The notes: generated by a model from the sequence alone, not told the origin. 55,519 nucleotides of DNA from Candidatus Beckwithbacteria bacterium (GCA_043803225.1 JAZDKF010000024.1:1-55519), one strand, 5' to 3'. Numbered from the stretch's first letter, positions 11,542-55,374 are shown. Made by a program: numbers and translations.

Positions 11542-11554
11542 AAAACCTCCTTTG

Positions 11555-11577
11555 CCTACAAGGAGTCTCCTTGTAGG
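11555..11577. repeat. REP-like palindrome R1 CCTACAAGGAG-T-CTCCTTGTAGG
   Basis: Perfect 11-bp arms with a 1-nt centre; part of 29-bp direct repeat 11551-11579 = 12425-12453; supplies LQGDSL* end of the 281-aa ORF. Confidence 0.95.
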
Positions 11578-12401
11578 ATATTTGCTTTAATTAAGCCAGC
11601 GATTTTACCCCAATTAGAGGCGGCTTTTTGGTGTTGAGGCCTAAATTCTATGGGAAGACCCTGAGCTAGAGTTTCTTTAAACACTCTTGTAAAATTTAAA
11701 GCGATCTGCAACTGCATGTTTGGATCTTTAGCCGCTTCTACATATCCAAAATTCGGTTTATCAGCTGGTTCGACTAAGTCTCCCAAATATAACTCGCTAG
11801 CTATATTGGCTTGTAAAAAATTATTAAAATGATCAAGCGTCGGTTCGTCGGCTTCGACAAGCGCCAAATGAGCCGTCATTGCGTTTTCTCTTAATTGTTT
11901 AAGTTTTTCATCTGCTTGTAGATTAGGATATCGTTCAAGAAATTGATCTAATTTGTCAGTCGATGGCAACCGAAACAAGTTAGCACCGTTGGTTTCGGCA
12001 ATATCTTTTCCAATTAATTTGGCAATATTTTTCCAGTTCCGGACCGCTTTTTTTGCAGAATGTATTTCGGCATAACTAATTGATTTTCTCAGTTGCTTTT
12101 GCTGTTCTTTTTTGGATTCTATAGCAATTTGTTTTTGCTTAGCTGGATCGCGAAATATTGCTTGCCATCGATCATATTCACTTTGATCAAAAAGCGATGA
12201 AAAATGGTGAGAGTCAGAATATAATTTTTGAAGTTCTTGTTGCCGGTAATGAGCTTCTATGAATTGATTAAACATGCTTAGGTCAACATTATTGGCTGTA
12301 TTTATTCTTTTTTTAGCTGCAATACAAGCTAAAAAGGCTCGATAAAGTTCACGGTGTTGTTTAAGAGGATCTTGGCTTTTTGGTCTCTCTAGCATTAACA
12401 T
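11556..12401 (-). CDS. Hypothetical protein (281 aa) with internal two-fold repeat, bounded by palindromes R1/R2
   Basis: Long open frame; duplicated motifs KQHRE/KQLRE, FNQFIEA/FNNFLQA, DPAKQKQIA/DPNMQLQIA, KAVRNWKNIAKLI/KAASNWGKIAGLI. Confidence 0.8.
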   Translation of the reverse strand: MLMLERPKSQDPLKQHRELYRAFLACIAAKKRINTANNVDLSMFNQFIEAHYRQQELQKLYSDSHHFSSLFDQSEYDRWQAIFRDPAKQKQIAIESKKEQQKQLRKSISYAEIHSAKKAVRNWKNIAKLIGKDIAETNGANLFRLPSTDKLDQFLERYPNLQADEKLKQLRENAMTAHLALVEADEPTLDHFNNFLQANIASELYLGDLVEPADKPNFGYVEAAKDPNMQLQIALNFTRVFKETLAQGLPIEFRPQHQKAASNWGKIAGLIKANILQGDSL

Positions 12402-12428
12402 ACTATTTCTTTCTGAGCAGATAATTTG

Positions 12429-12451
12429 CCTACAAGGAGTCTCCTTGTAGG
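12429..12451. repeat. REP-like palindrome R2 (identical to R1)
   Basis: CCTACAAGGAGTCTCCTTGTAGG with the same TTTG and AT flanks; 31 nt downstream of the ftsZ stop. Confidence 0.95.
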
Positions 12452-12482
12452 ATTAATAGATTTGAATTCGATTTTGTCATAA

Positions 12483-13601
12483 TTATCTCCCCTGGCGGAG
12501 GAAGGCGGGGATATCAAATTCGTCTGACTCTTCGTCAGTTTCTTTTACTTCGGTTAATTCCGGCTGGTCAGGATTGATTTTATCAGCAGGCTGGACAGAA
12601 ACAGTTGGGACTGACCGGCTGGAAAGATCTCTTAAACGCTGGCGGGTTTCATCAAAACCGGTGGCAATAACGGTAATCTTGATTTGGTCGACTAAATTTT
12701 CATCAATTGACGCGCCAAAGATAATATTGCAATCAGCATCGGTAGTTTTGGAAATAATTTCCGCTGCCTGATTGACTTCGCTCATGGTTAGGTCAGTACC
12801 GCCGACAATGTTAAACAACATGCCTTTGGCGCCTTCGATTGATGTTTCCAAAAGGGGCGAGGAAATCGCCGAACGGGCGGCATTCTGAGCCCGGTTTTCG
12901 CCAACACCGCTGCCCATTCCCATTAAGGCAGTACCGGCATCTTTCATAATGGTTTTAACGTCAGCAAAATCAACATTAATTAAACCAGAAGTAGTAATTA
13001 GGTCAGAAATCCCCTGAACCCCTTGGGTTAAAATGCTGTCGGCCATTTTAAAAGCTTCTATCAATGTCAAATTTTTATCGATTATGTCCATCAACCGTTG
13101 ATTAGGAACGACGATCATGGTATCAACTTTACTTTTTAAAGCTTCAATTCCCTCTTCGGCATTAACCATTCTCCGGGTGCCTTCGAAAAGAAAGGGTTTG
13201 GTGACCACAGCTACGGTTAAAGCCCCAACTTCTTTAGCAATTTCGGCAATAATCGGACAGCCGCCTGTGCCAGTACCACCTCCCATTCCAGCAGTTAAAA
13301 AAACCATATCAGCGCCAAACAAAAAGTCTCTAATCTTATCTTTGGTTTCATCAGCCGCTTGAGCACCAACTTTGGGATCAGACCCGGAGCCTAAACCACC
13401 AGTTAATTTTTCACCAATTTGGATTTTTGTTTCAGCCTGAGATGAAAGCAGGGCTTGGGCATCGGTATTGATAGCAACAAACTCCACACCTTTAATCAAG
13501 TTAGAACGGACCATATTGGAAACGGCGTTGCTGCCTCCGCCACCGACCCCTAAGACCTTTATTTTGGCAAATGTATTTAAATCTGGTTTGACCAAAGCCA
13601 T
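12483..13601 (-). CDS. ftsZ: Cell division GTPase FtsZ
   Basis: [16 protein letters not shown] tubulin signature, INVDFAD, C-terminal DIPAFLR. Confidence 0.99.
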
Positions 13602-13678
13602 AGTTTTTTGCCAAAGGCAAATTCAATTAATTAAAGCAGGGCAGGAGTTTACTAATTAACAATAGCTTATTTTTTTAT

Positions 13679-14947
13679 TTAAGGCAAGAAGGATTTGAGA
13701 AGTTTAATGCCTTTACTAAAAACGCCTTTAACTGGAATCTTGGGAAAATTTTTGGAAAAGTTTTTAAAAGCAGAGTCAGATTTAAAACCTTTAAAGTTTT
13801 TTACCCCGTAATCGATTAAACCCCAAGCAGTGGCAAAAGCCGGAGATTTTATTTCATCGATTAAACCGGTTAAGCCTTTGGGATAACCAATCCTAACCGG
13901 TAAGGATAAAGTCCGTTTGCAGGAAGAGGTTAAGCCGGCGGTTAAAGCTCCGCCGCCGGTGACTACAACTCCGGCTGGAGTGACTCCGCCAAAACCGGAT
14001 TTTTTTAACTGCTCGCCAACGAGTCCGAAAATTTCATTTAAACGCGGCCGGATAATTCCTTCGGTCAGAGTTTTCCTGGATAATTTGCCAACATCTTCGC
14101 TTAAATTTAATTTTTTAAAGTCCAGATCGTCATTGTCATCTTCCTGATCTTTTTCAATTTTAGAAAGGGCTAGTTTTATCTTTTCGGCAGTTTCTAAACT
14201 AACCCGTAAGCCAATAGCCAAATCGTTAGTGATGTTTTTAGAGCCGACCGGCAAAACAGAAGAAAAAGACAGAGCGCCTTCAACAAAAACTGCCAGAGAA
14301 GTACTGCCGCCGCCAAGGTCAACCAAGACGACTCCGAGTTCTTTTTCAGTCGGGGTTAAAACCGCTTCAGAACTGGCTAAGCCGGAAAAGACCAAACTAT
14401 CGATTTCCACCCCAATCTCAGAAACGCATTTACTAATGTTTCTTAAAGCAGTAGAAGAACTGGTGATAATGTGGGCTTCGGCTTCTAGTCTAACTCCGCT
14501 CATGCCAACCGGATCTTTGACCCCTTCCTGAGAATCAACTTTAAAGTCCCTAGGGATGACATGAAGAATTTCTCTAGATGATGGTAAAGAGACAGCTCGA
14601 GCGGCCTCAATTACCCGAGAAACATCGCTAGGGCTAATTTCTCCTTCCGGCTCAGCCACGGCGACAACGCCTTTAGAGTTTAATGATTCAATATGTGATC
14701 CGGAGATGGAAGCAATGCAGGAAGAAATCGTATAGCCAGCCATCCGTTCAGCTGATTCAACGCTTTGGGTAATCGATTCAATCGCTTCGTCAATATCAAC
14801 AATCTGGCTTTTTCTTAAACCTTTAGCCGGTTCATTGGCCACGCCGATAATATTAAGCTTATCTGATTCGGCACCAAGATTAGCAATTAAAGTAGTAATT
14901 TTAGTAGTGCCAATGTCAATAGCAGAGATAATTTGGTTTTTAGTCAT
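13679..14947 (-). CDS. ftsA: Cell division protein FtsA
   Basis: DIGTTKI, P.GMSGVRLE, EKELGV..VDLGGG, TNDLA, VVTGGGA; upstream of ftsZ. Confidence 0.98.
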   Translation of the reverse strand: MTKNQIISAIDIGTTKITTLIANLGAESDKLNIIGVANEPAKGLRKSQIVDIDEAIESITQSVESAERMAGYTISSCIASISGSHIESLNSKGVVAVAEPEGEISPSDVSRVIEAARAVSLPSSREILHVIPRDFKVDSQEGVKDPVGMSGVRLEAEAHIITSSSTALRNISKCVSEIGVEIDSLVFSGLASSEAVLTPTEKELGVVLVDLGGGSTSLAVFVEGALSFSSVLPVGSKNITNDLAIGLRVSLETAEKIKLALSKIEKDQEDDNDDLDFKKLNLSEDVGKLSRKTLTEGIIRPRLNEIFGLVGEQLKKSGFGGVTPAGVVVTGGGALTAGLTSSCKRTLSLPVRIGYPKGLTGLIDEIKSPAFATAWGLIDYGVKNFKGFKSDSAFKNFSKNFPKIPVKGVFSKGIKLLKSFLP

Positions 14948-14949
14948 GT

Positions 14950-15705
14950 TTAAAATGTTAAAACTGGTTTATCAAATCTTAAATCAATTTTTACTGGCAG
15001 GCTCTCCCCTATTTTATAACCAGATAAAATGTATTGTAAAGATGCAACCTGAGAATTGAGTGAACCGGTCAGATCGATAATCGCATATGGACCTTGATTA
15101 GTCTTGACTATACCAACAGATTGATTAAGCCAGGCTAACAGATTAAAACTAACATAATGTTCCTGAAGAGATTTGATTAAGTCGCTAAGATTTTTTGTTG
15201 CTAGGGACGGATTTTGGTCAAAGTTAAAAGATTCGGGTACAGCTACGGTTGGGTAAAGGTTTGGCTGATATTGTTTGGTCATAAAAAACTCTCCGGATTG
15301 ATCAAGCTGAAAAACCTGATTGGTAATAACACCGGATAATGTCGCTGAAGCTGAACTGTCTAAACCAGTAAATTCCAGATTTAGATACGGAACCAGCTGA
15401 GCCATCGGCTGACGGCGCTTGGCAGTTATTGATATTTGATTAGGAAGTTTTTTTGTTACCTGAATATCAGTCAAGTTTGGATCGAAAGCTAATAAGATTT
15501 GAGTGGCTTTAGCACTCTTAAGTTTAAAGATATTCTGCTGATAAAAGTTCACTAAAGTTGGCTCAAAAGCTAAGGAGCAAGGATACTGATCGATCTGACA
15601 AGATATCTTTTTAATTGAAAAAAATGCCAGCTGGTTTAATGTAATCGTTAGTCCAATTAAAATGATTACCGGAAAAAAAATAAACAGCAATGATTTAAAC
15701 TTCAT
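14950..15705 (-). CDS. ftsQ: FtsQ/DivIB-like cell division protein
   Basis: N-terminal TM, POTRA-like KKLPN.I.I segment, C-terminal IDLRF.KPV; located between murG and ftsA. Confidence 0.75.
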   Translation of the reverse strand: MKFKSLLFIFFPVIILIGLTITLNQLAFFSIKKISCQIDQYPCSLAFEPTLVNFYQQNIFKLKSAKATQILLAFDPNLTDIQVTKKLPNQISITAKRRQPMAQLVPYLNLEFTGLDSSASATLSGVITNQVFQLDQSGEFFMTKQYQPNLYPTVAVPESFNFDQNPSLATKNLSDLIKSLQEHYVSFNLLAWLNQSVGIVKTNQGPYAIIDLTGSLNSQVASLQYILSGYKIGESLPVKIDLRFDKPVLTF

Positions 15706-16687
15706 GATTTATTAGTTTAATGACTAACTCATAGAGTTTGTCAGCTGCAGAACTAACTAAATTTCTATCAAAACTTTGAGAAGATTTTTGCGGCAAAATT
15801 TTAATAGCCTGGTCGATAGTTTGTAAAAGTGTTTTTGGTGTCAGTTGAGTTTGGTTAAGAATTAAAGCCAAACCTAAAGATTGCATAAATTTGGCATTAG
15901 TCTGCTGTTCATTTTTCTGGGCGGTAGTTAACGGAATTAAGACAGCCGGAATTCTTAAGTAGGCCAGCTCGGTAACTGTGTTAATGCCGCTGCGGCTTAT
16001 GACTAAATCAACCTGAGAATAGATTTTTTTTAGTTGGGTTGGGGTAAACCAGGTTTGTAAATGGTAATGAGGCTGGTTGATAACCGGCGGCTGGTTAACT
16101 TGGTAAAGCCCGAATTGGTGATAAATAATATATTTTTCTAATAATTTGGATAAGATCGGAGCCACGGCCCGATTGATAGCCTGAGAACCGAAATGGCCTC
16201 CAGTAATATATATGGTGGGACGGCTGGCAGGCTGACGGTTGATTTGAAGAATTTCCGACCTAATCAAATTACCGGTAAGACAGGTTTTCTTAGCGGGAAA
16301 GTGTTTTAGACAAGAAGGCCAGGAAACAGCGATTTTATCGGCAATTAAACTGGTAAGTTTTGAAGTTAAACCAAAAGCAAAAGTTTGCTCGTGAATGATT
16401 AAAGGCAACCTTAAAAGTTTTGCTGCCAAACAGACCGGTAAAGCTTGATAACCGCCAAAACTAACCACCAAAGTAGGCTGAAGCCTAATTAACTGCTGAT
16501 AAGCTTGGATTAGACTATTAGGCAGTTTAATTAAGGATATGGTTGAGCGAAGCGGTTGATGACGATTAAACTTAGGTGTAGGAACAGTTAGTTGTTTTAC
16601 TTTATATCCGGCTAAGGTTAACCGGGCTTCTAAAGCGAGAGCCGGAGTGGGATGGCTGCCAGTCAGGACAATTAAGTTTAAACTCAT
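15695..16687 (-). CDS. murG: Lipid I GlcNAc transferase MurG
   Basis: TG.H..PA, SFGGY, IHEQ, TGN.IR, ITGG..GS, SRSG..T..EL, EQ..NA. Confidence 0.93.
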   Translation of the reverse strand: MSLNLIVLTGSHPTPALALEARLTLAGYKVKQLTVPTPKFNRHQPLRSTISLIKLPNSLIQAYQQLIRLQPTLVVSFGGYQALPVCLAAKLLRLPLIIHEQTFAFGLTSKLTSLIADKIAVSWPSCLKHFPAKKTCLTGNLIRSEILQINRQPASRPTIYITGGHFGSQAINRAVAPILSKLLEKYIIYHQFGLYQVNQPPVINQPHYHLQTWFTPTQLKKIYSQVDLVISRSGINTVTELAYLRIPAVLIPLTTAQKNEQQTNAKFMQSLGLALILNQTQLTPKTLLQTIDQAIKILPQKSSQSFDRNLVSSAADKLYELVIKLINHEV

Positions 16688-17781
16688 TTTTTCTTAGGGT
16701 TTAATTGATAACGGGAAATATTTATCAACAGGCCAATGGCAGCAAGGTTAACTACCAGGGATGAACCACCATAGGAAATAAAAGGCAAGGGAACGCCGGT
16801 TAAAGGAATTAATGCCAGCATGGCAGCTAGATTAATAGTAATTTGTATAGCAAACCAACTGGCTATGGAAGCAGCCAAAAGCCGGGAAAAATCATCGACT
16901 GCCAGTCTAGCAATCCGAAAAGCTTTGTAAATCAGCCAGAAAAGCACAGTGATTAAAATAACTGAACCGAAAAAACCAATTTCTTCGGCAATAACGGCAA
17001 AAATTGAATCAGTGGTCACCTGAGGCAGAAATTGATACTTTTGTTTAGACTGGCCTAAACCTACTCCAAACCAGCCGCCAGAACCAATGGTAATCAGGGC
17101 TTGACGGATGTGGTAAGAGCTGCCAAGCGGATCAGTCGCCGGATTAAAAAAGGTTAAAAGTCTGGCTTTACGATAAGCAGAGGTTAAAATTAAACCTAAA
17201 CCGGAAAGCGAGCCAAGGGCTCCAAGCAATAGCAAGTAAAGCCAGTTGGCACCGGAAACATAATAAACAACAACGCTGGAAAAAATAATCACCATGGCAG
17301 TACCTAAGTCCGGCTGTAACATGACCAAGCCTAAGACCAAACCTAAAATTAACAAGTAAGCCCAAAATGGCCGACGTTTAATCAACCAAGCGGAAAGGTA
17401 AATACTTAAAGACAGTTTAACTAACTCAGTCGGCTGAAGGCTGAAAGAACCTAAGTTAATCCAGCGCCTGGCCCCTAGGGTTGAATCACCAATACCAGGG
17501 ATTAAAACCAGGATTAAAAGCAAAAAGGTAAAACCAAAGAAAATTGGAGCTATTTTTTGAATTAAAGGTATTGGGATCAATCTAGCAATTAACAAACTGA
17601 TTAATCCAAAACCCAGCCATCTAACTTGAGAGGTTAAAAAATGGTACTTGTCACCATAAAGCTGGAAAGCTTCAAAAGTGGAAGCGTTATAAACCATAAC
17701 CAGGCCAAATAGAGACAAAATTAAAACTAAAATCAACAGTCCCCAATCGGCTTTTTTTGGTTTACAGGTAGTTTTTAACAT
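16684..17781 (-). CDS. ftsW: SEDS protein FtsW
   Basis: GLVMVYNAS, GARRWI, QPTEL.K, QPDLGT, SKQK..FLP...TDSIF, PLTGVPLPFISYGGSS. Start 17781 preferred. Confidence 0.95.
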   Translation of the reverse strand: MLKTTCKPKKADWGLLILVLILSLFGLVMVYNASTFEAFQLYGDKYHFLTSQVRWLGFGLISLLIARLIPIPLIQKIAPIFFGFTFLLLILVLIPGIGDSTLGARRWINLGSFSLQPTELVKLSLSIYLSAWLIKRRPFWAYLLILGLVLGLVMLQPDLGTAMVIIFSSVVVYYVSGANWLYLLLLGALGSLSGLGLILTSAYRKARLLTFFNPATDPLGSSYHIRQALITIGSGGWFGVGLGQSKQKYQFLPQVTTDSIFAVIAEEIGFFGSVILITVLFWLIYKAFRIARLAVDDFSRLLAASIASWFAIQITINLAAMLALIPLTGVPLPFISYGGSSLVVNLAAIGLLINISRYQLNPKKK

Positions 17782-19842: not shown

Positions 19843-19843
19843 G

Positions 19844-20875: not shown

Positions 20876-20882
20876 AATTTAA

Positions 20883-25093: not shown

Positions 25094-25096
25094 GAA

Positions 25097-26077: not shown

Positions 26078-26085
26078 TAGTGTAT

Positions 26086-26714: not shown

Positions 26715-26984
26715 AAGGAACCTGTAAGGACAGTTCCTGCAGGCAAAGTTTCCAACGGATTACGATGGATGTATTTTGAAAGGAAAATGAATTGAGTTTC
26801 AGTTTTTATCATAACCGCTATTTAGTCACCAAGGATCTAAGAAAATTAGCCATTAAATTTTCTTTTTTTGAAAAATAAATAAGTGAAAATGATTAGGCAC
26901 CAAGCAATAAGCCAGAAGAAAAGTTCCTGAGAAAAGTTTTTTAGTTTTTTCGATGGAGCAACCTACAGGGACTGTCCCTGCAGG
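26715..26984 (-). pseudogene. Decayed REP-associated tyrosine transposase (RAYT / Y1 HUH transposase) fragment
   Basis: Manual translation: LQGQSL*VAPSKKLKNFSQEL /fs/ LLAYCLVPNHFHLFIFQKK /fs/ NLMANFLRSLVTK* /deletion/ AVMIKTETQFIFLSKYIHRNPLETLPAGTVLTG. HUH block at 26883-26918; YIHRNP at 26756-26773. Confidence 0.88.
26721..26743. repeat. REP-like palindrome R3 CCTGTAAGGAC-A-GTTCCTGCAGG
   Basis: 23-nt family member with 3 arm mismatches; on the minus strand preceded by TTTG, as R1/R2 are on the plus strand. Confidence 0.8.
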
Positions 26985-26986
26985 TT
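26960..26986. repeat. REP-like palindrome R4 AACCTACAGGGAC-T-GTCCCTGCAGGTT
   Basis: 13-bp arms with 1 mismatch; overlaps the glmS stop codon. Confidence 0.9.
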
Positions 26987-28742
26987 ATTTTACAGTGACG
27001 GATTTAGCGAGGTTACGGGGCTTGTCAGGATTTAAACCGCGGCTGATAGCTAAATCATAAGCCAAAAGTTGAGCAATAACGGTAATGGGAATAGCGGTGG
27101 CCTGCTTTAAATCAGGAACTTGAAGATGAAAATCAAAAACCGGATCAGCTTGAGGTGAGATACCGATAATCAGACCGCCCCGGGCTTTCATTTCATGAGC
27201 GCTGGAGATAATATCCGAGTAAGTTTCATCCAGGGGGGCGATGACGATACAGGGAGTGCCTTTATCAATTAAGGCAATCGGTCCGTGTTTTAATTCGCCG
27301 CTGGCATAGGCTTCAGCATGAATATAACTGACTTCTTTAATTTTAAGAGCAGTTTCCAGGGCAATTGGATAGGATAAAAGCTTACCGACAACAAAAATAT
27401 GTTCCTGATCTTTGATCAGCCGGGCCAGGGATTTAATTTTTTCCCGATCTTGGCCCAAACAGAGATTTAAACTGGCTTTGGCGGCTAAGCGGATCAGATT
27501 TTGCGCCTGAACCAATTGATGATTTAAGTTAAAACCCAGCTGTAAAAGGGTTGCCAGCTTGGCAGTAAAAGCTTTGGTCGAAGCCACGGCAACTTCCTGG
27601 CCGGCTTGAAGCAGAAGTTTAAAGTCAGATTTCCGGTAAAGAGTTGAACCTAAAACATTGGTGATGCCGATAATTTTTAAATGTTGCTTTTTAGCCAAAT
27701 TAACAGCTTCAACCACATCGATCGTCTCCCCGCTTTGAGACAAGAGAGTGAAAGTCTTATTTTTATGGAGCAGTCTTTGGTATTTTTTAAACTCAGAACC
27801 GATAATTGCTTCAGCTTCCAGGCCAAAAAGATTAAATAAGTACTGGCCGAAAAGGGCGGCATAGTAAGCCGTGCCGCAGCCCAAAAGATAGTTAGACTGA
27901 CTGGCTTGATATAGTTTAGTAATCTGATCAATTGAAGCCTGAGGCAGTTGAGAAAGATTAGTCAAGATTTTCGGCTGATCGAAAATTTCTTTTTCCATAT
28001 AGTGATGAAACTTGCCTAAACGGCTTTGTTCCGCCTGCCAATCCAAGGTCATAATCTTTAGTTTTAAAGCTTTGCCGGTTTTGATAGAAAATAACTTAAC
28101 TTTATCAGCCGTGATTTGTACCATTTGGTTATCTTCCAAAAAGATTATCCGGCTGGTATGGTCTAAAAGCGCCCAAACATCAGAGGCAATAAAGTTTTGG
28201 TTTTTTCCCAGGCCGATAATTAAGGGCGAGCCGTTTTTAACGGCAATTAACTGATCGGTTTTGGCAGAAATAACGATCAGGGCATTCATACCGTTTAGCT
28301 GATTGAAAGACTGCTGTACGGCCTGAAGCAAAGGTTGCTTTTTGGTCTTTTCTTCAATTAAATGAAGAGCAACTTCAGTATCGGTTTCCGATAAAAATTT
28401 ATGCTTTGCAATTAAAGTTTCTTTGATCGTGCGAAAGTTTTCGACGATGCCGTTATGAACCAAGGATAAAGTTTTGGTACAGTCCAGATGAGGATGGGCA
28501 TTACCGACAGTGACGCCGCCGTGAGTCGCCCAGCGGGTATGACCCAGGCCGATCGCCGAAACCGGCAGCTTGGTCTTGGCTTCACCGATCTTACCCACAT
28601 GGCGTTCCCGAACCAGGCGCTGGCCTTGTTTAACCGTAATTCCCCAGGAGTCATAACCGCGGTATTCAAGTTTTTTCAAGCCGGAGAGGACAGTTTGCGC
28701 TGCCTGTTTCTTATCACCGATAACGCCAAAAATTCCACACAT
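26985..28742 (-). CDS. glmS: Glutamine--fructose-6-phosphate aminotransferase
   Basis: MCGI, LEYRGYDS, GHTRWATHG, SQSGET, VASTKAF, ELKHGP, PRNLAKSVTV. Confidence 0.99.
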   Translation of the reverse strand: MCGIFGVIGDKKQAAQTVLSGLKKLEYRGYDSWGITVKQGQRLVRERHVGKIGEAKTKLPVSAIGLGHTRWATHGGVTVGNAHPHLDCTKTLSLVHNGIVENFRTIKETLIAKHKFLSETDTEVALHLIEEKTKKQPLLQAVQQSFNQLNGMNALIVISAKTDQLIAVKNGSPLIIGLGKNQNFIASDVWALLDHTSRIIFLEDNQMVQITADKVKLFSIKTGKALKLKIMTLDWQAEQSRLGKFHHYMEKEIFDQPKILTNLSQLPQASIDQITKLYQASQSNYLLGCGTAYYAALFGQYLFNLFGLEAEAIIGSEFKKYQRLLHKNKTFTLLSQSGETIDVVEAVNLAKKQHLKIIGITNVLGSTLYRKSDFKLLLQAGQEVAVASTKAFTAKLATLLQLGFNLNHQLVQAQNLIRLAAKASLNLCLGQDREKIKSLARLIKDQEHIFVVGKLLSYPIALETALKIKEVSYIHAEAYASGELKHGPIALIDKGTPCIVIAPLDETYSDIISSAHEMKARGGLIIGISPQADPVFDFHLQVPDLKQATAIPITVIAQLLAYDLAISRGLNPDKPRNLAKSVTVK

Positions 28743-34526: not shown

Positions 34527-34549
34527 CCTACGAGGAGAGTCCTTGTAGG
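34527..34549. repeat. REP-like palindrome R5 CCTACGAGGAG-A-GTCCTTGTAGG
   Basis: Reverse complement differs from R1 at only 2 of 23 nt; lies in the ftsI-murE gap; stem extendable via TCTAAC/GTTAGA. Confidence 0.9.
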
Positions 34550-40520: not shown

Positions 40521-40534
40521 GAAGCAATTGTAAA

Positions 40535-41221: not shown

Positions 41222-41508
41222 AAATAAATTCCCAGCATGATCAGCAAACTGAAACCAGTCAACCAAGCGGCGGTGAGAAGGACGAGTTTGATGGATTGAT
41301 CTGGTTTATTGGTTTTAAGATAAAGCTTAACTGGATAACCAAAAACGATCAAACCGCAGATAAGGGCGGAAGTAGTTAAGATTATCAGCATTAAAAACGG
41401 GCCGAGGAAGTTAGGGACGCGGCCAAACCATTGCTCGCCGCGCCAAAAAATAAGAGCCACCAAGCTGCAGTAAGCGGTCAGTCCCAATGCTTGAAAAAAA
41501 GCAATCAT
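41209..41508 (-). CDS. Small 3-TM membrane protein
   Basis: Three hydrophobic segments; TATAAT 6 nt before the ATG. Confidence 0.7.
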   Translation of the reverse strand: MIAFFQALGLTAYCSLVALIFWRGEQWFGRVPNFLGPFLMLIILTTSALICGLIVFGYPVKLYLKTNKPDQSIKLVLLTAAWLTGFSLLIMLGIYLWKN

Positions 41509-41520
41509 AAGTTGATTATA

Positions 41521-47817: not shown

Positions 47818-47822
47818 AAAAA

Positions 47823-48701: not shown

Positions 48702-49885
48702 GCGCCTCCCAGTTGTTGGTAGATTTTATCCAAAGTTCTGGAAATTATCTGCCAGTTATATTGAGTATAGACTAAGTCTTTAGCATTATAGGCTAATTTG
48801 GCGGCTAAAGCTTTGTCAGTTAAAACCGCTACTGTTTGACTGGCCAGATTGTCAGCTGATTCTGCAATTAAAACTGAATGTTGATTAACCGCATCAATGC
48901 CTTCAATTCCCAATCTGGTGGTAACCACCGGAACTCGGCTGGCCATGGCTTCCAAAACTTTATATTTAGTTCCCCGGCCGTTACGGATCGGGGCCAGTAA
49001 AACACTGGCTGATTGAAAAGCCTGGCGGATATCTTCAACCTGGCCGTTAACCGTTACCTGCGGCTGATTAGCCAGATTAAGAATTTCGGCAGTGGGATTA
49101 CGGCCAACAATCCAGAGTTTGGCTTGGGGTAAAACCTGATGGATTTTAGGCCAAATGTCGGTAACTAAAAACTTAGCGGCATCTTTGTTAGGCAACCATT
49201 TAAAGTTGCCGACGAACAAAATTGTCGGGAGCTGATCCTTTAGTTTTTTAACGCTGGCAAAATGCTCAACATCGACTCCATTGGCAACAACATCGACCTT
49301 GCGATCGAAAACTGAATTTTCCATGATGGTTTTATCAGACTGGGACATAGCGGCTAAACGGGTGGCTTTACGCCAATAGTACTTTTCCCATAACTTAATT
49401 TTAAAAACATCAAAGTAAAGCAAAGGTTTTAAGAAAAAGAGCTTAAAGTCTTCAACAAACCGCTGGTAGACCATGTACTCAATGGTCTGTTCCACCAAAA
49501 GCGTCGGGATGTGGGCAGATTTAGGCAGATTGGGCATAACGTAAAAGGTTTCCGCGTGAATAAGGTCATAATTGGCGGCTAATTCGCGCTGAATGGCGGT
49601 TTTAACTGACCGGGAAAGATAGATCGAAACCAGAAACGGATAAGGAGACAGGACGGAAATTAAGATGTTTCGCGGATCCCAGGCTTGACGGCGTTTAAAG
49701 ACTTTTACTTTAGCGCAATATTTTTTTAATTCGCTGATATGCTCGGTTTCCTTATTAGAACGGATAAAACTGAATAAGGTAATCTGGTGTTTCTGAGAAA
49801 GATTTTTAATTAAGTTATAGCTTCTGATCTGGCCGCCGGAGTGTAAGGGGTATGGCAAGTAAGGAGTCAACATTAAGATCTTCAT
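48698..49885 (-). CDS. Glycosyltransferase family 4
   Basis: PYP..SGG.IR, NGVD, FVG.F.W.PN, P...G.G...KVLEAMA. Confidence 0.92.
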   Translation of the reverse strand: MKILMLTPYLPYPLHSGGQIRSYNLIKNLSQKHQITLFSFIRSNKETEHISELKKYCAKVKVFKRRQAWDPRNILISVLSPYPFLVSIYLSRSVKTAIQRELAANYDLIHAETFYVMPNLPKSAHIPTLLVEQTIEYMVYQRFVEDFKLFFLKPLLYFDVFKIKLWEKYYWRKATRLAAMSQSDKTIMENSVFDRKVDVVANGVDVEHFASVKKLKDQLPTILFVGNFKWLPNKDAAKFLVTDIWPKIHQVLPQAKLWIVGRNPTAEILNLANQPQVTVNGQVEDIRQAFQSASVLLAPIRNGRGTKYKVLEAMASRVPVVTTRLGIEGIDAVNQHSVLIAESADNLASQTVAVLTDKALAAKLAYNAKDLVYTQYNWQIISRTLDKIYQQLGGA

Positions 49886-51312
49886 AAACAGCCATGAAGA
49901 TCAATGATAATGTACTCGTCGGTCTTTTCTACCACTGAGCATTTTTCTGCCAAATACGCAGAGACATTGTCAAAGTTAACCGAAATATAGTAAGTGGCGC
50001 CTTGTTTGACTTTGGCTTCAATGTCAACGCCGTCAGGCCAGCCATAGCGATTAGTCTGGTATAAAAAGGCCGGATCAGAGTTATAGGCAGCAATTACCAG
50101 AGCATCTTTAGGTGTGAGTCGATCAACTGCCTGGCCGGCTTTAACAATCTCCGGCCGGTTGATGTTGAAAAATCCCCTAACCTCATACCAGCCAAAAGCC
50201 AAGGAGATTAAGATTAAAAAACAAGCCAGAGAAAAATTAATTATTCGGGGGAGAAGTTTTTTTGTTTGGTTGATAATCGCAAAAAAACCAAAACTAACTA
50301 GAATAGAACCAACCGGCATAATCGGCAGCTGGTAGTAATCATGAGTGACATTGCCCATAGCAAAGATAGTCATATAAGCCACGACTGATAAAAACCACAC
50401 AAAAATTAAAGTTTTTTTCTTATCCAGATAGGAATTTAGCAAACCGATAATTAATAAAACAAAACCACCGGTAGCAAAGATTAAGCGGTTTAAACGCTCA
50501 AAGATAAGCCAGCGGAAAAAGGCACCGGAAAAGCGAATATCGGTCCGGTTAAATAACCAACTAGTGTCAAAGTTAGCCTCCGGATGAAGATGATAATGAT
50601 AGCGCCAGAGTAAAACCGGAACCAGGGCGATAATTGTCGCGAGGTAAGTAGTTTTATTTTTAAAAATCTTAACGCCTTTGGTTACCAAGGCCCAATAAAT
50701 CATTGGCAAAACCATAAAAGCAGCATAGGGCTTGACCAACATCGCTAAACCAAAGACCAAACCGGTGAGTAGGCCATAAATAGGTTTGTCTTGCTGAAAC
50801 CAAATAATAAACAAGTAAAGACTGATGATCGACAGGCTGACAAAAGTCGGGTCAGGCATGATCACCCGACCATAATAAATATTGTAAGGATTTAAGGCAT
50901 AAAACAGTCCGGCGACAAGAGCGGTTTTAAAATTAAAAAGTCTATTAACTAAGAGAAAGAGAAAGACTGCACCGATGCTGGCAAAAAAATCGCTGACTAA
51001 CCGAGCTATAGCTGGATTTATGCCAAAGAGTTTATATCCAATAGCCACCAGGACATTGTAAAACGGAAATTCATTGATAAATAAGCGATTAGGGTTGGGT
51101 AACTGCTGGGGATTTAAAGCCAGCAAGCTGTCGGACTGAGGATAAAGTAAATTAAAATCAGCTTTAATAAAGTTTCTCGCCACAGCCGCGGTGTCAGCCT
51201 GGCGCCAGGAATGCCAGTCAGCTACAGGATTATTCACCCGATAAAGCCGCGGGATAAAGGCCAGAATAAAGATAAACAAAGGAATAATAAATTTAAGCAG
51301 TTTTTTTGTCAT
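49882..51312 (-). CDS. GT-C fold (ArnT/PMT-like) membrane glycosyltransferase
   Basis: WRQADTAAVARNF, EFP.Y, multiple TMs, R..MPD, LVKP, HDYYQLP. Confidence 0.85.
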   Translation of the reverse strand: MTKKLLKFIIPLFIFILAFIPRLYRVNNPVADWHSWRQADTAAVARNFIKADFNLLYPQSDSLLALNPQQLPNPNRLFINEFPFYNVLVAIGYKLFGINPAIARLVSDFFASIGAVFLFLLVNRLFNFKTALVAGLFYALNPYNIYYGRVIMPDPTFVSLSIISLYLFIIWFQQDKPIYGLLTGLVFGLAMLVKPYAAFMVLPMIYWALVTKGVKIFKNKTTYLATIIALVPVLLWRYHYHLHPEANFDTSWLFNRTDIRFSGAFFRWLIFERLNRLIFATGGFVLLIIGLLNSYLDKKKTLIFVWFLSVVAYMTIFAMGNVTHDYYQLPIMPVGSILVSFGFFAIINQTKKLLPRIINFSLACFLILISLAFGWYEVRGFFNINRPEIVKAGQAVDRLTPKDALVIAAYNSDPAFLYQTNRYGWPDGVDIEAKVKQGATYYISVNFDNVSAYLAEKCSVVEKTDEYIIIDLHGCL

Positions 51313-52879
51313 GTTTTAAAGTGTGCGTGGCTAAAGCCAACAACAGTCCGATAATTGACCAGTAACTGTAAGCAATCTTTGATGCTTCAAAAACATCAAT
51401 ATAGATCGCGTTGGCCAGCAAACCGATGGTAATGGCAATGCCAGAGCCAAACAAGGCTGAGTCAAGCAGTCGGGTAGACTTTCTAAACGCCCGGTAGAGA
51501 GTTTTTAGAACTACCCCAAGAATCAGGATAAATGAGGCAAATCCTAAAATCCCGGTCTCGCCTAACAAGCGCAGATAGTCGTTATCAGTTGATTCGGCGA
51601 TCGTAAACTCCCAAACCTTAGACTTAACCAGAGTCGAATAACCGGTGCCGAGTAAGGGGTTGATTTTTAAAGCCCTAACCGCATTCGGCCATAAAGTATC
51701 CAAACGGATACCGGCTGACAAACCGTATCTAAGCGCGTTCTCCGAATAATTGATGTTAAAAGTTTCACCGGAAACTGTGGCTAGGTAGGCTTGCAACTTT
51801 TCATAGGTATCGTCGTAAACATCGAGCGGTTTGTCTGGAAGTGAACCGGGTGGACGTTCGCTGGAGGGCGGAATATCGGTTCTGGTGGCAATAATACTTA
51901 ACTGCTCCTCCAGGCTTAAATTAGGATTTAAAGCCAGACCGTTTTTTGGCGGCGAGCGAAACGGCCTTAAAACAATTTCTTTAACCCCTTCCAGCTTTAG
52001 GATATGGGAAAATCTTTCTGACAGATCCCCAAAAGAAATCATAATAAGAAAGCTTAAACTGATCACGACCAACCAGCGGCTGAAGACCCAAAAAAACCTT
52101 TTTTTAAAAAACATCAGAAAAAAGGCAGCTGAGATACCGATAATGTAAGCGACCCAGGAAGTCCGGGAAGCGGTTAAGATTAAAAGCCAGTATTCAAAAA
52201 CCGAGACCAGCAGGCTCAAGTAACGGATCCACTTCTTTTCATAGACTAGGCTGATGATGATCAGAGGAATTAAGGTAATGACAATGTATCCGGCCAGATC
52301 AAAGTGACCGCCAAAGGTTGAGAGCACCCGGGCATGCTCGGTTAAATACAAAGCAATACCTTTGGAAAACTCCCGATTCATCGTGGAATAAGCCGGCCAG
52401 TAAAGATATTTCTGGCCAAAACCGTAGATCGAGACCGAAAAAACAGTGAACATTAACAAACAGATAAAAACTTTAAGAGTTTTTAAGTTTTTCAGGGCAA
52501 AGTAAAAGATAAAAAACAAAGAAAAGTACTCGATCCGTCTGAACCAGTGGAGAAAAACTTTGGCGATTTGAATCCATTCAGGGTAAACAGTCTTGGTAAT
52601 AAAAATAGCAGACAAAGTCGACAATAAGCCGATAGTTAAATAGATCAGGATCGGTTTAAACAACGGCGCGGACTGAATTTTAATTTTTTTTCTGACAACC
52701 TGAAAGATAAAGTAGAAATTAGCGATTAAGATTAAGACATCTTCCAGCCTGACTCTAACATTGTAGCCCGGCAGAATGTCAAACAATGGCCATTTGGGAT
52801 ACAACGGAATAAAGACCAGCAAAAAACCAGCAATAAGGGTTAAGAGATGCTGATCAAGCCAATTTAAAAGCTTCGGCAT
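51293..52879 (-). CDS. O-antigen ligase/Wzy_C-like membrane protein
   Basis: R..STFG, LT.SR.S, R...W, NPLLGTG, DNDYLR.L.E.GILG; many TMs. Confidence 0.82.
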   Translation of the reverse strand: MPKLLNWLDQHLLTLIAGFLLVFIPLYPKWPLFDILPGYNVRVRLEDVLILIANFYFIFQVVRKKIKIQSAPLFKPILIYLTIGLLSTLSAIFITKTVYPEWIQIAKVFLHWFRRIEYFSLFFIFYFALKNLKTLKVFICLLMFTVFSVSIYGFGQKYLYWPAYSTMNREFSKGIALYLTEHARVLSTFGGHFDLAGYIVITLIPLIIISLVYEKKWIRYLSLLVSVFEYWLLILTASRTSWVAYIIGISAAFFLMFFKKRFFWVFSRWLVVISLSFLIMISFGDLSERFSHILKLEGVKEIVLRPFRSPPKNGLALNPNLSLEEQLSIIATRTDIPPSSERPPGSLPDKPLDVYDDTYEKLQAYLATVSGETFNINYSENALRYGLSAGIRLDTLWPNAVRALKINPLLGTGYSTLVKSKVWEFTIAESTDNDYLRLLGETGILGFASFILILGVVLKTLYRAFRKSTRLLDSALFGSGIAITIGLLANAIYIDVFEASKIAYSYWSIIGLLLALATHTLKHDKKTA

Positions 52880-53717
52880 AAATTTTGTTTCTAAAAAGAA
52901 TCAGCCTTAACAGAGCGCCAATTTTTAGCAATAAGCTCAATATACACGATTGCCAGAAAGAATGGTGTTTTTTATAAATATACTTAAGACCTTTATACTC
53001 ACCTAGAATTGCCCCCCGGCTGGAGCCGGAAGCCTGACCAAGATGAGTTAACTGCGGAACAGAAAAATAATCAAGCTGGTGCCTGCTTTTGGCTGCCCGA
53101 TAACAAAACTCAACGTCCTCGCCGTACATAAAAATCTTTTCATCCAAGCCGCCAAGCTGACGGTAAAGAGAAGCTTTCACTAATAAAGCGGTGCCGCTAA
53201 GCCAACCCGGATGCTGGTCTTTTCGAAAATAATTGTTTTGATTCTGGTGGTAGGATTTAATTAGAGATTTTAGAATCGGCAAGTCATCAATAAAAAACAT
53301 CCAGACAGCTAAGTTGCAAAGTGTAGGCAGACTACCACCTTGGAATTGAATTGAGCCGTCTGAATTTAACAGTTTACAGGAAGCAATTGAAGAATTATTT
53401 TTCACAGCTAGTTTCATAAGAGTACTAATTGTATTTGATTTCAATAATGTGTCGCTATTTAACAACCAAATATATTTACCTTTTGCTTTAGTAAAACCAA
53501 AGTTATTACCTTGGGCAAATCCCAGGTTTCCGCCTGACGAATAAATTTGATACTGGGGAAATTTTTGTTTTAAATACTCAATAGAACCGTCATTGGAACC
53601 ATTGTCGACGACGATTACTTCTTTTTTAAGGCTGTCTTTTGAATTCTTGATAGTTTTAAGACAGTTAGCAGTGATTGCTTTAGTGTTGTAATTAACAATA
53701 ATTATCGACAAATCCAT
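52854..53717 (-). CDS. Glycosyltransferase family 2
   Basis: SIIIVNYN, VDNGS.DGS, NLGFA.GNN, LLNSD, FMYGED. Confidence 0.93.
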   Translation of the reverse strand: MDLSIIIVNYNTKAITANCLKTIKNSKDSLKKEVIVVDNGSNDGSIEYLKQKFPQYQIYSSGGNLGFAQGNNFGFTKAKGKYIWLLNSDTLLKSNTISTLMKLAVKNNSSIASCKLLNSDGSIQFQGGSLPTLCNLAVWMFFIDDLPILKSLIKSYHQNQNNYFRKDQHPGWLSGTALLVKASLYRQLGGLDEKIFMYGEDVEFCYRAAKSRHQLDYFSVPQLTHLGQASGSSRGAILGEYKGLKYIYKKHHSFWQSCILSLLLKIGALLRLILFRNKIYAEAFKLA

Positions 53718-53720
53718 AGG

Positions 53721-54326
53721 TTATTGAAACAATCTGGGACGGCCAAGACAGTAATTTAACTCACTTACCTGGCGGATTCCAATTGGCTTAGCGGGAACGC
53801 CACCAACTATTGTCATATCAGGAACATCTTTAGTGACCACTGCGCCAGCAGCAATAACTGAGCCTTTACCAATCGTAATTCCAGGCAAGATAATCGCTCT
53901 GGGGCCGATAAAACAGTAGTCCTTGATGGTAACGGGTTGTTCGATTGGATCAAAAAAGGGCGAGTTAAGATCATGTTCTGAGTTAAAAATCATGACTTGG
54001 CTGGCAATGTCAACATGATTGCCAATAGTTAACTCAGCCCGGCCGTCTAAAGTGACATGGTCACCAATTATGGTACCATTACCAACAGTAATGTTTTTTG
54101 GCTGGAAGAAACGGGCGCCGATATGAATCGTGGATTTTTTCCCGATCTTGACACCGGCAAATTTAAAAAGACAGCGGCGGAAACAATGCGAAGGAACAAA
54201 ACCTAACAGCCATAACAGAGAAATTTTAAAATCCAGGTAGTAGTTGTAAAGCCGATTACAGATCTTACGGCAGGCTTGACACCAAGTTAACGGTTGATTG
54301 GATCGGTCTTTAAAGAGTGAGTTCAT
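53721..54326 (-). CDS. Hexapeptide-repeat O-acetyltransferase
   Basis: Left-handed beta-helix repeats; ILPG.TIG.G.VIAAGAVVTKDVP...VGGVPAK. Confidence 0.92.
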   Translation of the reverse strand: MNSLFKDRSNQPLTWCQACRKICNRLYNYYLDFKISLLWLLGFVPSHCFRRCLFKFAGVKIGKKSTIHIGARFFQPKNITVGNGTIIGDHVTLDGRAELTIGNHVDIASQVMIFNSEHDLNSPFFDPIEQPVTIKDYCFIGPRAIILPGITIGKGSVIAAGAVVTKDVPDMTIVGGVPAKPIGIRQVSELNYCLGRPRLFQ

Positions 54327-55374
54327 TTAATACCTCCAAGATCGTGTTCGCTGATTTTTCCCAAGAAAAGTTTTTAGCTTTTTGTCGGGCAGCAGCTAAT
54401 TGTTGTTTTTTAGTCTCAGTTGACAAAGATAATAGCTCTATTATACCTTTTTCGATGGCTGGAGCGTTAAATGGCGGTTCAATGTACAGACCGCAGTCGC
54501 CCACAATCTCCGGCAAAGAGGAGTTGCGGCTGACTAGAACCGGCGTTCCTAAAGCCATTGCCTGAACCACGGGAATACCAAAACCTTCATATAAACTGGG
54601 TAAAATTAATCCTAAACTATTTTTAATTAAGGTAGGGAGTTTATCCTGAGGCACAAAACCAAGATACTGAACATTTTTTAGCGGCCGTGGCTGGTAAAGC
54701 CAGCCGGTTTTCCCGGCAATAACTAACTTAATCCCTGCGAGGTCGGACCTCGCAGACTGGCAAAAGACCTCAATTAAGGCATTAAGATTTTTACGAGGTT
54801 GGAGTGTGCCTACATAAAGCAAATATTTACCTTTAACTGGGCTTTTGCCAGTTACTTTGAGCCGGTCAACCCCGGGATAAACAACACTTATTTTATTTTC
54901 CGGAATTTGGTAACTGGCCACAAGGTCATTTTTGGTAGCCTGGGAAATAGCAAAAATGTGTTTGGCTTGTTTAGTGGAATAGGCAGTCCACAATTTCAAT
55001 TGCCATAGATCAGAGCGCCGAAAAGTTTGAGGAAACTTTAAAAAAGCCAAGTCCATAATGCAAACCAAAGTCGGTACAGGAGAAAATCGTGGCGCATAGT
55101 GACCTAAAGTCAGAAAAAGATCGGGCTTAGGCTTTTGGAAGTATAATTGTAAGGGTAAACGCCATTGGGTCCATAAAAACTTAGGGAGTACAATTTGATA
55201 CTGCCAACGGAGTGAAGCCGAAGGCATATCCGATAATGGAGCAGTTTTTAAATATATTCTATAAGAGTTGGTTTTATCCAGACGAGATAATTGAGTTAAA
55301 ATTTGGAAAGCATACTGATTACTGCCGACCCGGTTAACCACATTAGCTTCGTTAGCATCAATTCCGATTAACAC
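54310..55374 (-). CDS. Glycosyltransferase family 4 carrying in-frame palindrome R6
   Basis: GTG start with SD AGGAGG; IGID, VGTLQPRKN, PSLYEGFGIP, FSWEKSA. Confidence 0.93.
   Translation of the reverse strand: MLIGIDANEANVVNRVGSNQYAFQILTQLSRLDKTNSYRIYLKTAPLSDMPSASLRWQYQIVLPKFLWTQWRLPLQLYFQKPKPDLFLTLGHYAPRFSPVPTLVCIMDLAFLKFPQTFRRSDLWQLKLWTAYSTKQAKHIFAISQATKNDLVASYQIPENKISVVYPGVDRLKVTGKSPVKGKYLLYVGTLQPRKNLNALIEVFCQSARSDLAGIKLVIAGKTGWLYQPRPLKNVQYLGFVPQDKLPTLIKNSLGLILPSLYEGFGIPVVQAMALGTPVLVSRNSSLPEIVGDCGLYIEPPFNAPAIEKGIIELLSLSTETKKQQLAAARQKAKNFSWEKSANTILEVLNELTL
54735..54755. repeat. REP-like palindrome R6 CTGCGAGGTC-G-GACCTCGCAG (intragenic)
   Basis: Perfect 10-bp arms with a 1-nt centre; same geometry as R1 with 4 compensated pair changes; encodes (S)ARSDLA(G). 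Confidence 0.7.

Follow-up and report, generated by a model that had tools for sequence, protein, structure and literature searches.

The subject of this work is a stretch of 55,519 nucleotides from Candidatus Beckwithbacteria bacterium (GCA_043803225.1, JAZDKF010000024.1:1-55519, contig C24 of the assembly; hereafter the window) and six short palindromes in it, R1 to R6, which we relate to the repetitive extragenic palindrome (REP) systems that are served by REP-associated tyrosine transposases (RAYTs). The genome to which the window belongs (G000) consists of 908,105 bp in 58 contigs, has 41.6% G+C, and is 97.8% complete and 1.9% contaminated. A search of the window with the pattern CCTRYRRGRWSNSWYCYYRYAGG, allowing at most two mismatches, returns exactly six sites, at 11555, 12429, 26721, 26962, 34527 and 54734, and these are precisely the places where a first-pass annotation of the same DNA had put its palindromes. 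The six-site pattern has no occurrence in 100 dinucleotide-preserving shuffles of the window.

The six copies sit in quite different surroundings. R1 (11555..11577) is a perfect palindrome whose CTA, which is TAG on the minus strand, serves as the stop codon of an orphan open reading frame (ORF), and R2 (12429..12451), a copy of R1, lies 31 nt past the stop of ftsZ and 27 nt before the start of that orphan. R3 (26721..26743) is decayed; a 185-aa ORF stops 12 nt before it, and in the frame of a RAYT pseudogene this hairpin reads ..LPAGTVLTG.., while R4 (26962..26984) abuts the glmS stop codon at 26985. R5 (34527..34549), with a 3-nt loop, is intergenic, between the genes for a transpeptidase (FtsI-like) and a Mur ligase in a cell-division cluster. 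R6 (54734..54756) is read in phase 0, as SARSDLAG, within a family-4 glycosyltransferase gene (Glycos_transf_1 by Pfam; 54310..55374, minus strand). Elsewhere in the assembly, C41:1932-2996 holds a glycosyltransferase gene that equals this one in length (354 aa), differs little from it in sequence and has a more decayed hairpin at the codon where R6 lies; this copy may be a paralogue, a strain variant or contamination.

All six had been described as having the same geometry, two 11-nt arms around one nucleotide. This holds for R1 and R2, which are identical and perfect, and less well for the others: Watson-Crick pairs number 10 of 11 in R4 and R6, 9 in R5 and only 8 in R3, the weakest, and several hairpin subtypes fit a 10-bp stem with a 3-nt loop better than the 11+1+11 form. 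We distinguish the subtypes by their cores, which are GGAG-N-CTCC in R1, R2 and R5 (subtype b), GGTC-G-GACC in R6 (subtype a) and GGAC-N-GTCC in R3 and R4 (subtype c). The core of R6 is the same as the one that flanks a RAYT gene on another contig, C47:48129.

A genome-wide family of mostly translated hairpins

In the genome as a whole the pattern has 23 exact matches, 42 with at most two mismatches and 46 with at most three. A stringent catalogue, in which each arm motif carries at most one mismatch and at least 8 of the 11 pairs form, holds 40 copies against 0 in the reversed genome, so that a genome scan, which the first-pass annotation had called for, finds a family much larger than the few copies of the window. 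The CCT...AGG class is the largest among all 11+1+11 near-palindromes in the genome. The count of 40 is an undercount, because a further subtype, TACAAGGGTT-N-AACCCTTGTA, with three copies that all lie within ORFs (C16:12593, 24353 and 34322), escapes both the IUPAC pattern and the stringent catalogue. A purine precedes the palindrome in 33 of the 40 copies and a pyrimidine follows it in 35, so the palindrome is often 25 nt long. The copies are mostly single: only two stringent pairs lie less than 100 nt apart (C12:160441/160476 and C27:61485/61548), and a third close pair, C16:8867/8892, appears only under the looser pattern.

Compensated differences between the arms, noticed before among the six copies, are evident among the 40. 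Pair 4/20 is A-T in 20 copies, G-C in 5 and T-A in 2; pair 7/17 is A-T in 32 and G-C in 5; pair 10/14 is A-T in 24 and T-A in 11; and pair 11/13 is G-C in 20 and C-G in 17.

Where the copies lie is informative. Genes were called as naive longest ORFs, which cover about 94% of the genome and leave 6.4% as non-ORF DNA. Naive ORFs contain 26 of the 40 copies, a further 3 overlap the 3' end of one, and the remaining 11 are intergenic, so that intergenic copies are over-represented (11/40 against 6.4%, P = 3e-5). Most copies, those in RAYT genes included, are translated parts of genes, a fact that the first-pass annotation had missed. We regard 24 of the 26 as credible, the other two being doubtful since they lie near the 5' end of a naive ORF. 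The credible copies are read in phase 0 in 14 cases (giving PTRxLLVG-like peptides), in phase 2 in 10 (xLQGxSLK-like) and in phase 1 in none, for which the chance is (2/3)^24, or about 6e-5. In phase 2, position 20 is A in nine copies, C in one and T in 0 of 10, as opposed to T in 22 of 30 elsewhere (Fisher P = 5e-5). T is shunned there because GTAGG would then read a TAG stop, and avoiding this stop costs one stem pair. Conversely, three ORFs terminate at the palindrome's TAG, namely the orphan at R1 and two on C12.

The host genes confirmed by Pfam encode TsaD, MiaA (IPPT), MnmA, DprA, Fpg, the anticodon-binding domain of ArgRS, LeuRS and WecG, and further an M29 peptidase, a corrinoid adenosyltransferase, methyltransferases, a ComEA-like protein, ribosomal protein L18 and others. 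A 527-aa ORF at C27:60315-61898, with no Pfam family, contains three stringent palindromes, all in phase 0, and a fourth under the looser pattern; it may be a protein largely built on palindrome repeats.

RAYT genes, their own hairpins and their spread

Having described the hairpins, we turn to the enzyme. A search for Y1_Tnp (PF01797) finds five genes in the genome, two on C47 and the others on C26, C31 and C30, with four above the cut-off. Altogether the genome has eight RAYT matches, which are these five divergent genes and three fragments; the window holds no intact transposase gene. The two intact C47 genes encode proteins of 212 and 216 aa that are 55% identical, which makes them the best RAYT pair in the genome. 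Each has a palindrome of its own subtype 15-17 nt before the start codon and another at the base directly after the stop. Palindromes are also read in frame: one gene has two, at +149 and +459, and the other has one, at +444. Between these genes the palindrome core differs (GGAG-N-CTCC in one, GGTC-G-GACC in the other), and the hairpin-RAYT-hairpin units span 702 and 712 bp. The linkage of hairpins to a RAYT that the first-pass annotation proposed is therefore borne out, for the most part outside the window, by the intact C47 genes, flanked by and containing their own subtype; the window itself has a RAYT fragment only. Words resembling TGTATAAT, seen by eye, had made a promoter at the RAYT upstream hairpin a candidate; we rejected it, as a promoter scan of one such locus (L004) found none there.

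Hairpins of quite another kind stand 29-44 nt upstream of the paralogues on C26 and C31 and of the C30 gene, which the end of its contig truncates. A second, smaller hairpin family, CACCT-NNN-AGGTG, has nine copies (C26:40824 and 41398; C31:7626, 8522 and 16413; C12:180721; C9:2802; C55:147 and 171), which lie upstream of the RAYTs at C26:40868-41530 and C31:8556-9236, once inside, and also within ORFs. The RAYT-like gene C30:6973-7534 is preceded, at a distance of 29 nt, by a singular hairpin (C30:6945-6964, GGTCAGACC/GGTCTGACC) that has no further copy in the genome.

Assemblies that hold relatives of the transposase bear the labels Candidatus Beckwithbacteria, Collierbacteria, Gottesmanbacteria, Microgenomates or Patescibacteria, so that the present genome is that of a small bacterium of the candidate phyla radiation (CPR). 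The arrangement on C47 recurs in related loci of other assemblies. We scored four hairpin positions: upstream, about +149 (site 1), about +453 (site 2) and just after the stop. Among 26 such loci at least one position is occupied in 24 and at least two in 21, and the hairpin type is uniform within a RAYT locus and different between loci. The site 2 hairpin is read in phase 0 in most RAYT genes and in phase 1 in about six.

Site 1 allows a quantitative test of the stem. From 28 RAYT genes we took the 23-mers at this site, chosen by their position in the protein alignment and not by pairing (one, L033, was moved by 3 nt to its best-pairing register). In 22 of the 28 at least 9 of the 11 pairs form; overall 86.4% of positions are paired, compared with 73.8% in shuffles (0 of 500 reach this value), 7 of the 11 pairs are changed on both sides, and the covariation score is 0.299 against 0.124 in shuffles (again 0 of 500). 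Related sequences can exceed shuffles without any structure, but the low values of the controls in which the partner is slid by 1-3 columns (33-56% paired) and the many pair types argue that the stem is maintained.

The protein itself has the features of a Y1 transposase. Y1_Tnp matches 23 of 23 aligned homologues, and in their alignment N83, H84 and H86 of the HUH motif and Y144 of KYIHRNP are invariant. In the CPR proteins the HUH strand is preceded by about 30 additional residues, and hairpin site 1 lies in this extra segment. An AlphaFold model of the RAYT has a mean pLDDT of 84.3, and its lower-confidence blocks, residues 51-70 and 151-160, are where the two hairpins are read. The best solved fold match of this model is 4er8_A (E 1.4e-5, template-modelling score 0.71 on the target), the E. 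coli REP-associated tyrosine transposase with a bound REP hairpin; the transposases of ISDra2, IS608 and IS200 come next. A single-sequence search of solved structures with the RAYT gives no match.

Now we consider how far the system extends. With at most one mismatch, the pattern is present in 12 of 13 other genomes of the same family, with 4-38 copies each; of 27 genomes that belong to other families in the order, one has it, with 2 copies, and the backwards-read control of the compared genomes has none. A RAYT match to the C47 protein at E <= 2.7e-70 is found in 14 of 14 pattern-positive and in 0 of 27 pattern-negative genomes, where the best match is 6.4e-65, so that the co-occurrence on which the first-pass annotation had staked its proposal is observed. 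G005, the one sister genome that lacks the pattern, has no RAYT closer than a distant paralogue (5e-30). Sister genomes have between 1 and 19 RAYT matches each, with more than 100 paralogues over the family, and this family-wide presence suggests vertical descent of the RAYTs. RAYT-like matches are abundant in two small genomes, with 19 in the 1.1 Mb of G001 and 16 in the 0.8 Mb of G010, several of them with one stop codon.

Individual hairpin sites also persist. In Fpg a CCT...AGG hairpin lies at the same codons in G000, G003, G011 and G010, with compensated changes (for example CCTAC...GAAGG versus CCTGC...GCAGG) and differing cores, and G007 has another palindrome at this site. The MnmA site carries a different hairpin with 10 of 11 pairs in G010, the TsaD site has other or decayed hairpins in sister genera, and at the LeuRS site sister genomes show the same type, decayed forms or other hairpin types. 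LeuRS also has further inserts of about 18 aa at other points, in some genomes only, and at one 18-aa insert site three genomes have different hairpin types. In six LeuRS loci (L008, L009, L013, L014, L015 and L016) we noted palindrome-coded inserts (TPGVK...TPGV, TPESK...PLRRV, TSEVK...TSEV) that are present or absent by genus.

Segments bounded by hairpins in the window

Two pairs of window hairpins form brackets, as the first-pass annotation described. Between R3 and R4 lies a RAYT pseudogene (26720..26989, minus strand), to which tblastn aligns residues 49-161 of the two intact proteins of C47, with E 7e-10 and 1e-10; this bears out the earlier proposal that the pair encloses a RAYT fragment. 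The pseudogene is split over two frames of the minus strand, ...LLAYCLVPNHFHLFI... and ...LSKYIHRNPLETLPAGTVLTG..., and keeps both the HUH motif (..LAYCLVPNHFHL.., with ...NHFHL... visible) and the tyrosine motif (..SKYIHRNP..); what it has lost are the 5' third and the 3' third, with their flanking hairpins, and an inner stretch. From the tblastn alignment it follows that R4 is internal site 1 of a RAYT gene (+149) and R3 internal site 2 (about +453). The remnant is tightly enclosed, with the glmS stop codon at one end and the neighbouring ORF 12 nt off at the other.

Two further remnants, on C12, comprise residues 1-53 and 48-95, and each ends at the site 1 hairpin. Over the three fragments in the genome, 4 of 6 ends are at hairpins. 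Either recombination between 23-bp repeats or RAYT action between two hairpins would produce such ends. In one C12 locus (L112, C12:158700-161300) we noted by eye two subtype-b palindromes, at positions 1777-1850 and 2231-2300, after each of which comes a stretch of about 60 nt (...CTCAAGTAGACA...TTTTTTGTATATAAT...) that is similar in both, the whole forming a longer direct repeat around a RAYT remnant.

The other pair, R1 and R2, brackets the orphan ORF (281 aa; 11556..12401, minus strand), whose last residues ...ILQGDSL are coded by R1. The orphan has no Pfam or NCBIfam family and no match in the 13 sister genomes or in a metagenome scan, and among 5.8 billion proteins (those of 154-492 aa compared) it finds only itself, in agreement with its first description as a gene without relatives. 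It is part of a spacer between ftsZ (12483..13601, minus strand), the conserved left anchor, and a gene for a class I tRNA synthetase (IleRS-like, ileS; 8167..10995, minus strand), which we take as the conserved right anchor because it lies directly after ftsZ in 9 of 19 related loci. The spacer contains a second lineage-specific ORF of 172 aa (11023..11541, minus strand), between R1 and ileS, with no family match and with no counterpart in the 13 sister genomes. On the minus strand at 11541-11555 a strong Shine-Dalgarno-like AAAGGAGG and the ATG of this 172-aa ORF stand directly past R1; the subtype-b palindrome contains AAGGAG.

How are hairpins and orphans related in this spacer? Of the 19 related ftsZ loci with downstream DNA, the nine just mentioned run to ileS without any other ORF (of 80-90 aa or more), and ten hold other ORFs in the spacer; nine of these ten have no adjacent palindrome under the scan settings used. 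In the sister genomes 12 of 13 ftsZ loci include downstream DNA; ftsZ and ileS are adjacent in 5 of the 12, once with a single palindrome (G011), and 7 have other ORFs, 6 of them without a palindrome. Among the eight closest metagenome contigs with ftsZ (leaving out L115, which stops at ftsZ), one (L117) stops after a single post-ftsZ palindrome, four run directly from ftsZ to ileS, two of them with the palindrome of L117, and three have other ORFs and no palindrome. Since a single post-ftsZ hairpin is present in G011 and in three metagenome contigs, R2 looks like a resident hairpin of this position. The ORFs differ and are unrelated at each filled locus (window 10995-12483; loci L085-L097 and L116-L123), and we regard the spacer as a hot spot for lineage-specific ORFs, whether hairpins are there or not.

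Interpretation and relation to known systems

Direct observation gives us the hairpin family and its copy number, the RAYT linkage, the covariation, the in-frame coding with stop avoidance, the persistence at orthologous sites and the hairpin-bounded remnants. On these grounds we consider it highly probable that the six palindromes belong to a REP-like hairpin family that is serviced by RAYT-type (Y1, HUH) single-stranded DNA transposases and has persisted vertically in one Microgenomates (CPR) family. Each RAYT paralogue has its own hairpin subtype and bears it four times, before the start, after the stop and twice in frame. That a RAYT moves or rewrites the hairpins, and the manner in which it would do so, we infer: the enzyme would bind the hairpin in single-stranded DNA, cut and rejoin at its base, and by this cutting and rejoining spread, replace or recombine hairpins. 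In a gene-dense genome the surviving copies would mostly be translatable ones, in the two stop-free frames and in tolerant protein segments. Cutting or recombination between two hairpins would delete the intervening DNA, and such hairpin-to-hairpin deletion would explain why dead RAYT genes, as between R4 and R3, end exactly at hairpins. A further reading, which we put forward only tentatively and think rather unlikely as a whole, is that the hairpin sites, loops of essential proteins and the two sites within each RAYT gene included, are fixed and long-lived and are rewritten by the resident RAYT with its own type, by replacement and not by plain insertion, and that the RAYT may also join any two hairpins, deleting or installing gene-sized segments; deletion would have left the hairpin-bounded RAYT remnants, and the installed segments would be the bracketed orphans, a toxin-antitoxin pair and accessory enzymes.

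Several points weigh against an interpretation based on RAYT. The enzyme scores 41 bits against a cut-off of 80 in the NCBI family REP_Tyr_transpos (NF047646), and its sequence-profile matches are weak, with E 0.2 for 4er8 and 0.0017 for ISDra2; judged by sequence, the RAYT here is a distant branch, outside the curated NF047646 equivalog. The number of RAYT paralogues per genome (up to 19 in 1.1 Mb) is unlike that of the usual single-copy RAYT. Alignments of LeuRS, TsaD, MnmA and Fpg show no fixed added length for a unit of 23-25 nt, and in LeuRS, TsaD and Fpg the hairpin-coded residues mostly replace residues of the relatives and do not add some 8 aa; with no clean insertion length, simple cut-and-paste insertion is unproven, and copies may arise by insertion, by replacement of older ones or by both routes. 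We saw no transposition event, empty site or polymorphism in the compared genomes and contigs, and the metagenome contigs include no near-identical strain, the best ftsZ being 92% identical (on the contig that stops at ftsZ), followed by 88% and 85%. Finally, the genome is a metagenome assembly with 1.9% contamination, and its gene calls are naive longest ORFs.

Other accounts of the same data have to be weighed. In an integron-like capture, as the first-pass annotation proposed, a RAYT would excise and insert the DNA between two hairpins and so bring in orphan or accessory genes. Two lineage-specific single ORFs are indeed tightly bracketed by like hairpins, the R1-R2 orphan and a 171-aa ORF with a weak methyltransferase match and no counterpart in the 13 sister genomes (C12:159916-160428, between subtype-a hairpins at C12:159854-160441), and if 8-16 extragenic copies are placed at random in 1,010 gaps, at least two single-gene brackets arise with P = 0.001-0.02. 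Of five hand-picked palindrome pairs in sister genomes three tightly bracket one gene (a malate/lactate dehydrogenase gene, a PGI gene beside a RAYT, and a 739-aa ORF of no known family), a fourth has a ParE toxin/Phd antitoxin pair between a hairpin and one in the 3' part of a RecJ-like gene (L197, G010:C1:12400-14000, positions 442-1178), and the fifth encloses several genes; these sister-genome pairs were picked by eye from a partial list. R2, at the position of the single post-ftsZ hairpin seen elsewhere, fits insertion beside a resident hairpin, and the ends of the RAYT remnants fit as well. Against this, the orphan has no second copy or homologue in anything searched, so that neither movement nor a source is evident, its 172-aa neighbour has no hairpin on the ileS side, spacer ORFs at nine of the ten filled loci lack a neighbouring palindrome, and permissive spacers of a dense genome may gather hairpins and orphans independently. 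Of the pairing around lineage-specific genes, then, the two brackets stand and the second orphan does not conform, and orphan gain by this route, which the brackets make suggestive, we think unlikely. It is quite unlikely, too, that we are looking at an ordinary IS200-like element, in which the hairpin-RAYT-hairpin unit, some 700 bp long, is what moves and its collapse between the end hairpins leaves single hairpins as scars. The C47 units, with like hairpins at both ends, have the size and layout of IS200-type elements, the genome has many RAYT paralogues, and the remnants cut at hairpins show that hairpin-to-hairpin deletion occurs; however, RAYT genes that are at most 55% identical within the genome give no sign of recent element copying, the 40 hairpins far exceed the 8 RAYT genes and fragments, and at the 24 in-frame single hairpins (in LeuRS, TsaD, Fpg and L18, for instance) a 700-bp insertion would first have destroyed the gene.

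Two further explanations dispense with the enzyme. The hairpins could mainly be host elements, such as terminators, RNA stabilisers or sites for host proteins, with the RAYT link secondary. The extragenic enrichment noted above, the several copies just past stop codons (R2 and R4), the terminator-like score of R1 on the plus strand and the persistence of hairpins at orthologous positions in different genera, a possible sign that the host uses them, are what this explanation would lead us to expect. Yet 26 of the 40 copies are within naive ORFs, the T-rich tail of R1 is on the strand opposite the local genes, the hairpin type switches with the neighbouring RAYT paralogue, and across 41 genomes the hairpin family tracks one RAYT clade, all of which makes this explanation very unlikely. 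A terminator or operator function as the main role was tried and rejected: the consensus scans flag R1 and partly R4, only opposite the local genes, and terminator-like counts are not above those of shuffles. Lastly, selection might act on a peptide motif (PTRSLLVG or LQGDSLK) with the DNA palindrome as its by-product, since many copies are translated and two peptides recur. The same DNA word is read in two frames, occurs on either strand and is found outside coding DNA as well, and compensated stem changes alter the encoded peptide; the intergenic copies and the two-frame use contradict this account, which we find scarcely credible.

To our knowledge, work on REP-RAYT systems has dealt almost wholly with Proteobacteria and with repeats outside genes. 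Here a system of this kind is found in a CPR genome of 0.9 Mb that has hardly any spacer DNA, and there it has entered genes. The in-gene hairpins of RAYTs change in step with the flanking copies, which supplies dozens of natural enzyme-hairpin pairs for the study of Y1 recognition and offers a way to test in-place hairpin replacement by Y1 enzymes. Where conserved CPR proteins have short variable inserts, these may often be DNA hairpins and not adaptations. Joining of hairpin to hairpin, if it takes place, would open a path by which streamlined genomes lose and acquire genes, and under the tentative rewriting and joining scheme the RAYT would edit a minimal genome in general, its own gene included. 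We expect moderate to high interest in these questions among workers on mobile DNA and on CPR genomes.

Known systems resemble this one to different degrees. In integrons, single genes form cassettes bounded by attC hairpins that are folded from single-stranded DNA, and accessory genes are gained in this way. The sites described here differ in being dispersed and mostly intragenic, with no arrays seen (no search for an integrase or attI was made) and with no cassette found in two contexts. Elements of the IS200/IS605 group (TnpA of IS608 and ISDra2; 2a6o, 2xm3) share the catalytic fold and motifs and the layout of a unit some 700 bp long with a hairpin at either end, and the chemistry to be expected from them is cleavage of single-stranded DNA beside hairpins. 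Unlike these elements, ours are not repeated as identical full elements, hairpins far outnumber genes, and the RAYT has about 215 aa with extra segments, as opposed to about 130-155 aa for the solved TnpA chains.

Closer in placement are palindromes that lie within genes. Rickettsia palindromic elements (RPEs) such as RPE-1 are about 100-150 bp long, and we know of no dedicated transposase for them. The unit of the present system measures 23-25 nt and is also part of its cognate RAYT gene. Like RPEs, the palindromes lie in frame in protein genes, with 24 credible copies, and a clean insertion length is not demonstrable. The intragenic repeats treated in parts of Di Nocera et al. (2013, PMC3733652) include RPE-1, described there as a longer palindromic insertion, and REPs within genes of several species, tRNA synthetase genes among them, although most REPs are intergenic. 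Those passages agree with our data in that palindromes are in frame in apparently intact protein genes, tRNA synthetases included, and that some lie at ORF ends; the difference is that intragenic copies are a minority in the genomes surveyed in those passages and the majority here.

We found no paper on REP-RAYT systems in CPR bacteria; a search of the Patescibacteria literature for a REP-associated tyrosine transposase gave mention of one such gene only, in an archaeon, and PMC6006769 contains none of the CPR terms sought. Nor did we find RAYT genes with in-frame cognate hairpins in the literature, though the supplementary tables of PMC3733652 may hold such cases.

The closest relatives are the REP/REPIN-RAYT systems of Proteobacteria. 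As the parts of Di Nocera et al. (2013, PMC3733652) on these families describe them, REPs are tagged with GTAG, have stems of 6-13 bp, fall into subfamilies with complementary stem changes and are associated with repeat-specific REPtrons; RAYT groups, their flanking repeats and their usual low copy number are treated in portions of Bertels et al. (2017, bioRxiv 10.1101/119735). Our system has in common with them a short GC-rich GTAG hairpin, compensated subfamilies, a Y1/HUH gene with its own repeat on either side, transposase paralogues that are each specific for a repeat, an apparently long vertical persistence and a fold match to the REP-bound E. coli RAYT. There are also differences. In the textbook REP the GTAG is an unpaired end tag, whereas here GTAG lies within a near-perfect stem of 10-11 bp, where it and CTAC form stem pairs 2-5 (22 of the 40 copies have T at position 20), just as the first-pass annotation had remarked. 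REPINs are inverted doublets and REPs are extragenic, whereas our copies are mostly single, with 26 of 40 in ORFs and only 11 intergenic. A RAYT is usually a single-copy gene, in contrast to the five genes found here and the up to 19 matches of a sister genome; two in-frame cognate hairpins at conserved positions of the RAYT genes are unlike the described REP-RAYT systems; and the enzyme is below the NCBI cut-off for the REP-RAYT equivalog, in a CPR host. The proposal of a non-canonical REP class, linked to Y1/HUH transposases and marked by GTAG within the stem and by single, mostly intragenic copies, is right, and the case for it is stronger than the first-pass annotation supposed: the system is a variant of the REP-RAYT kind.

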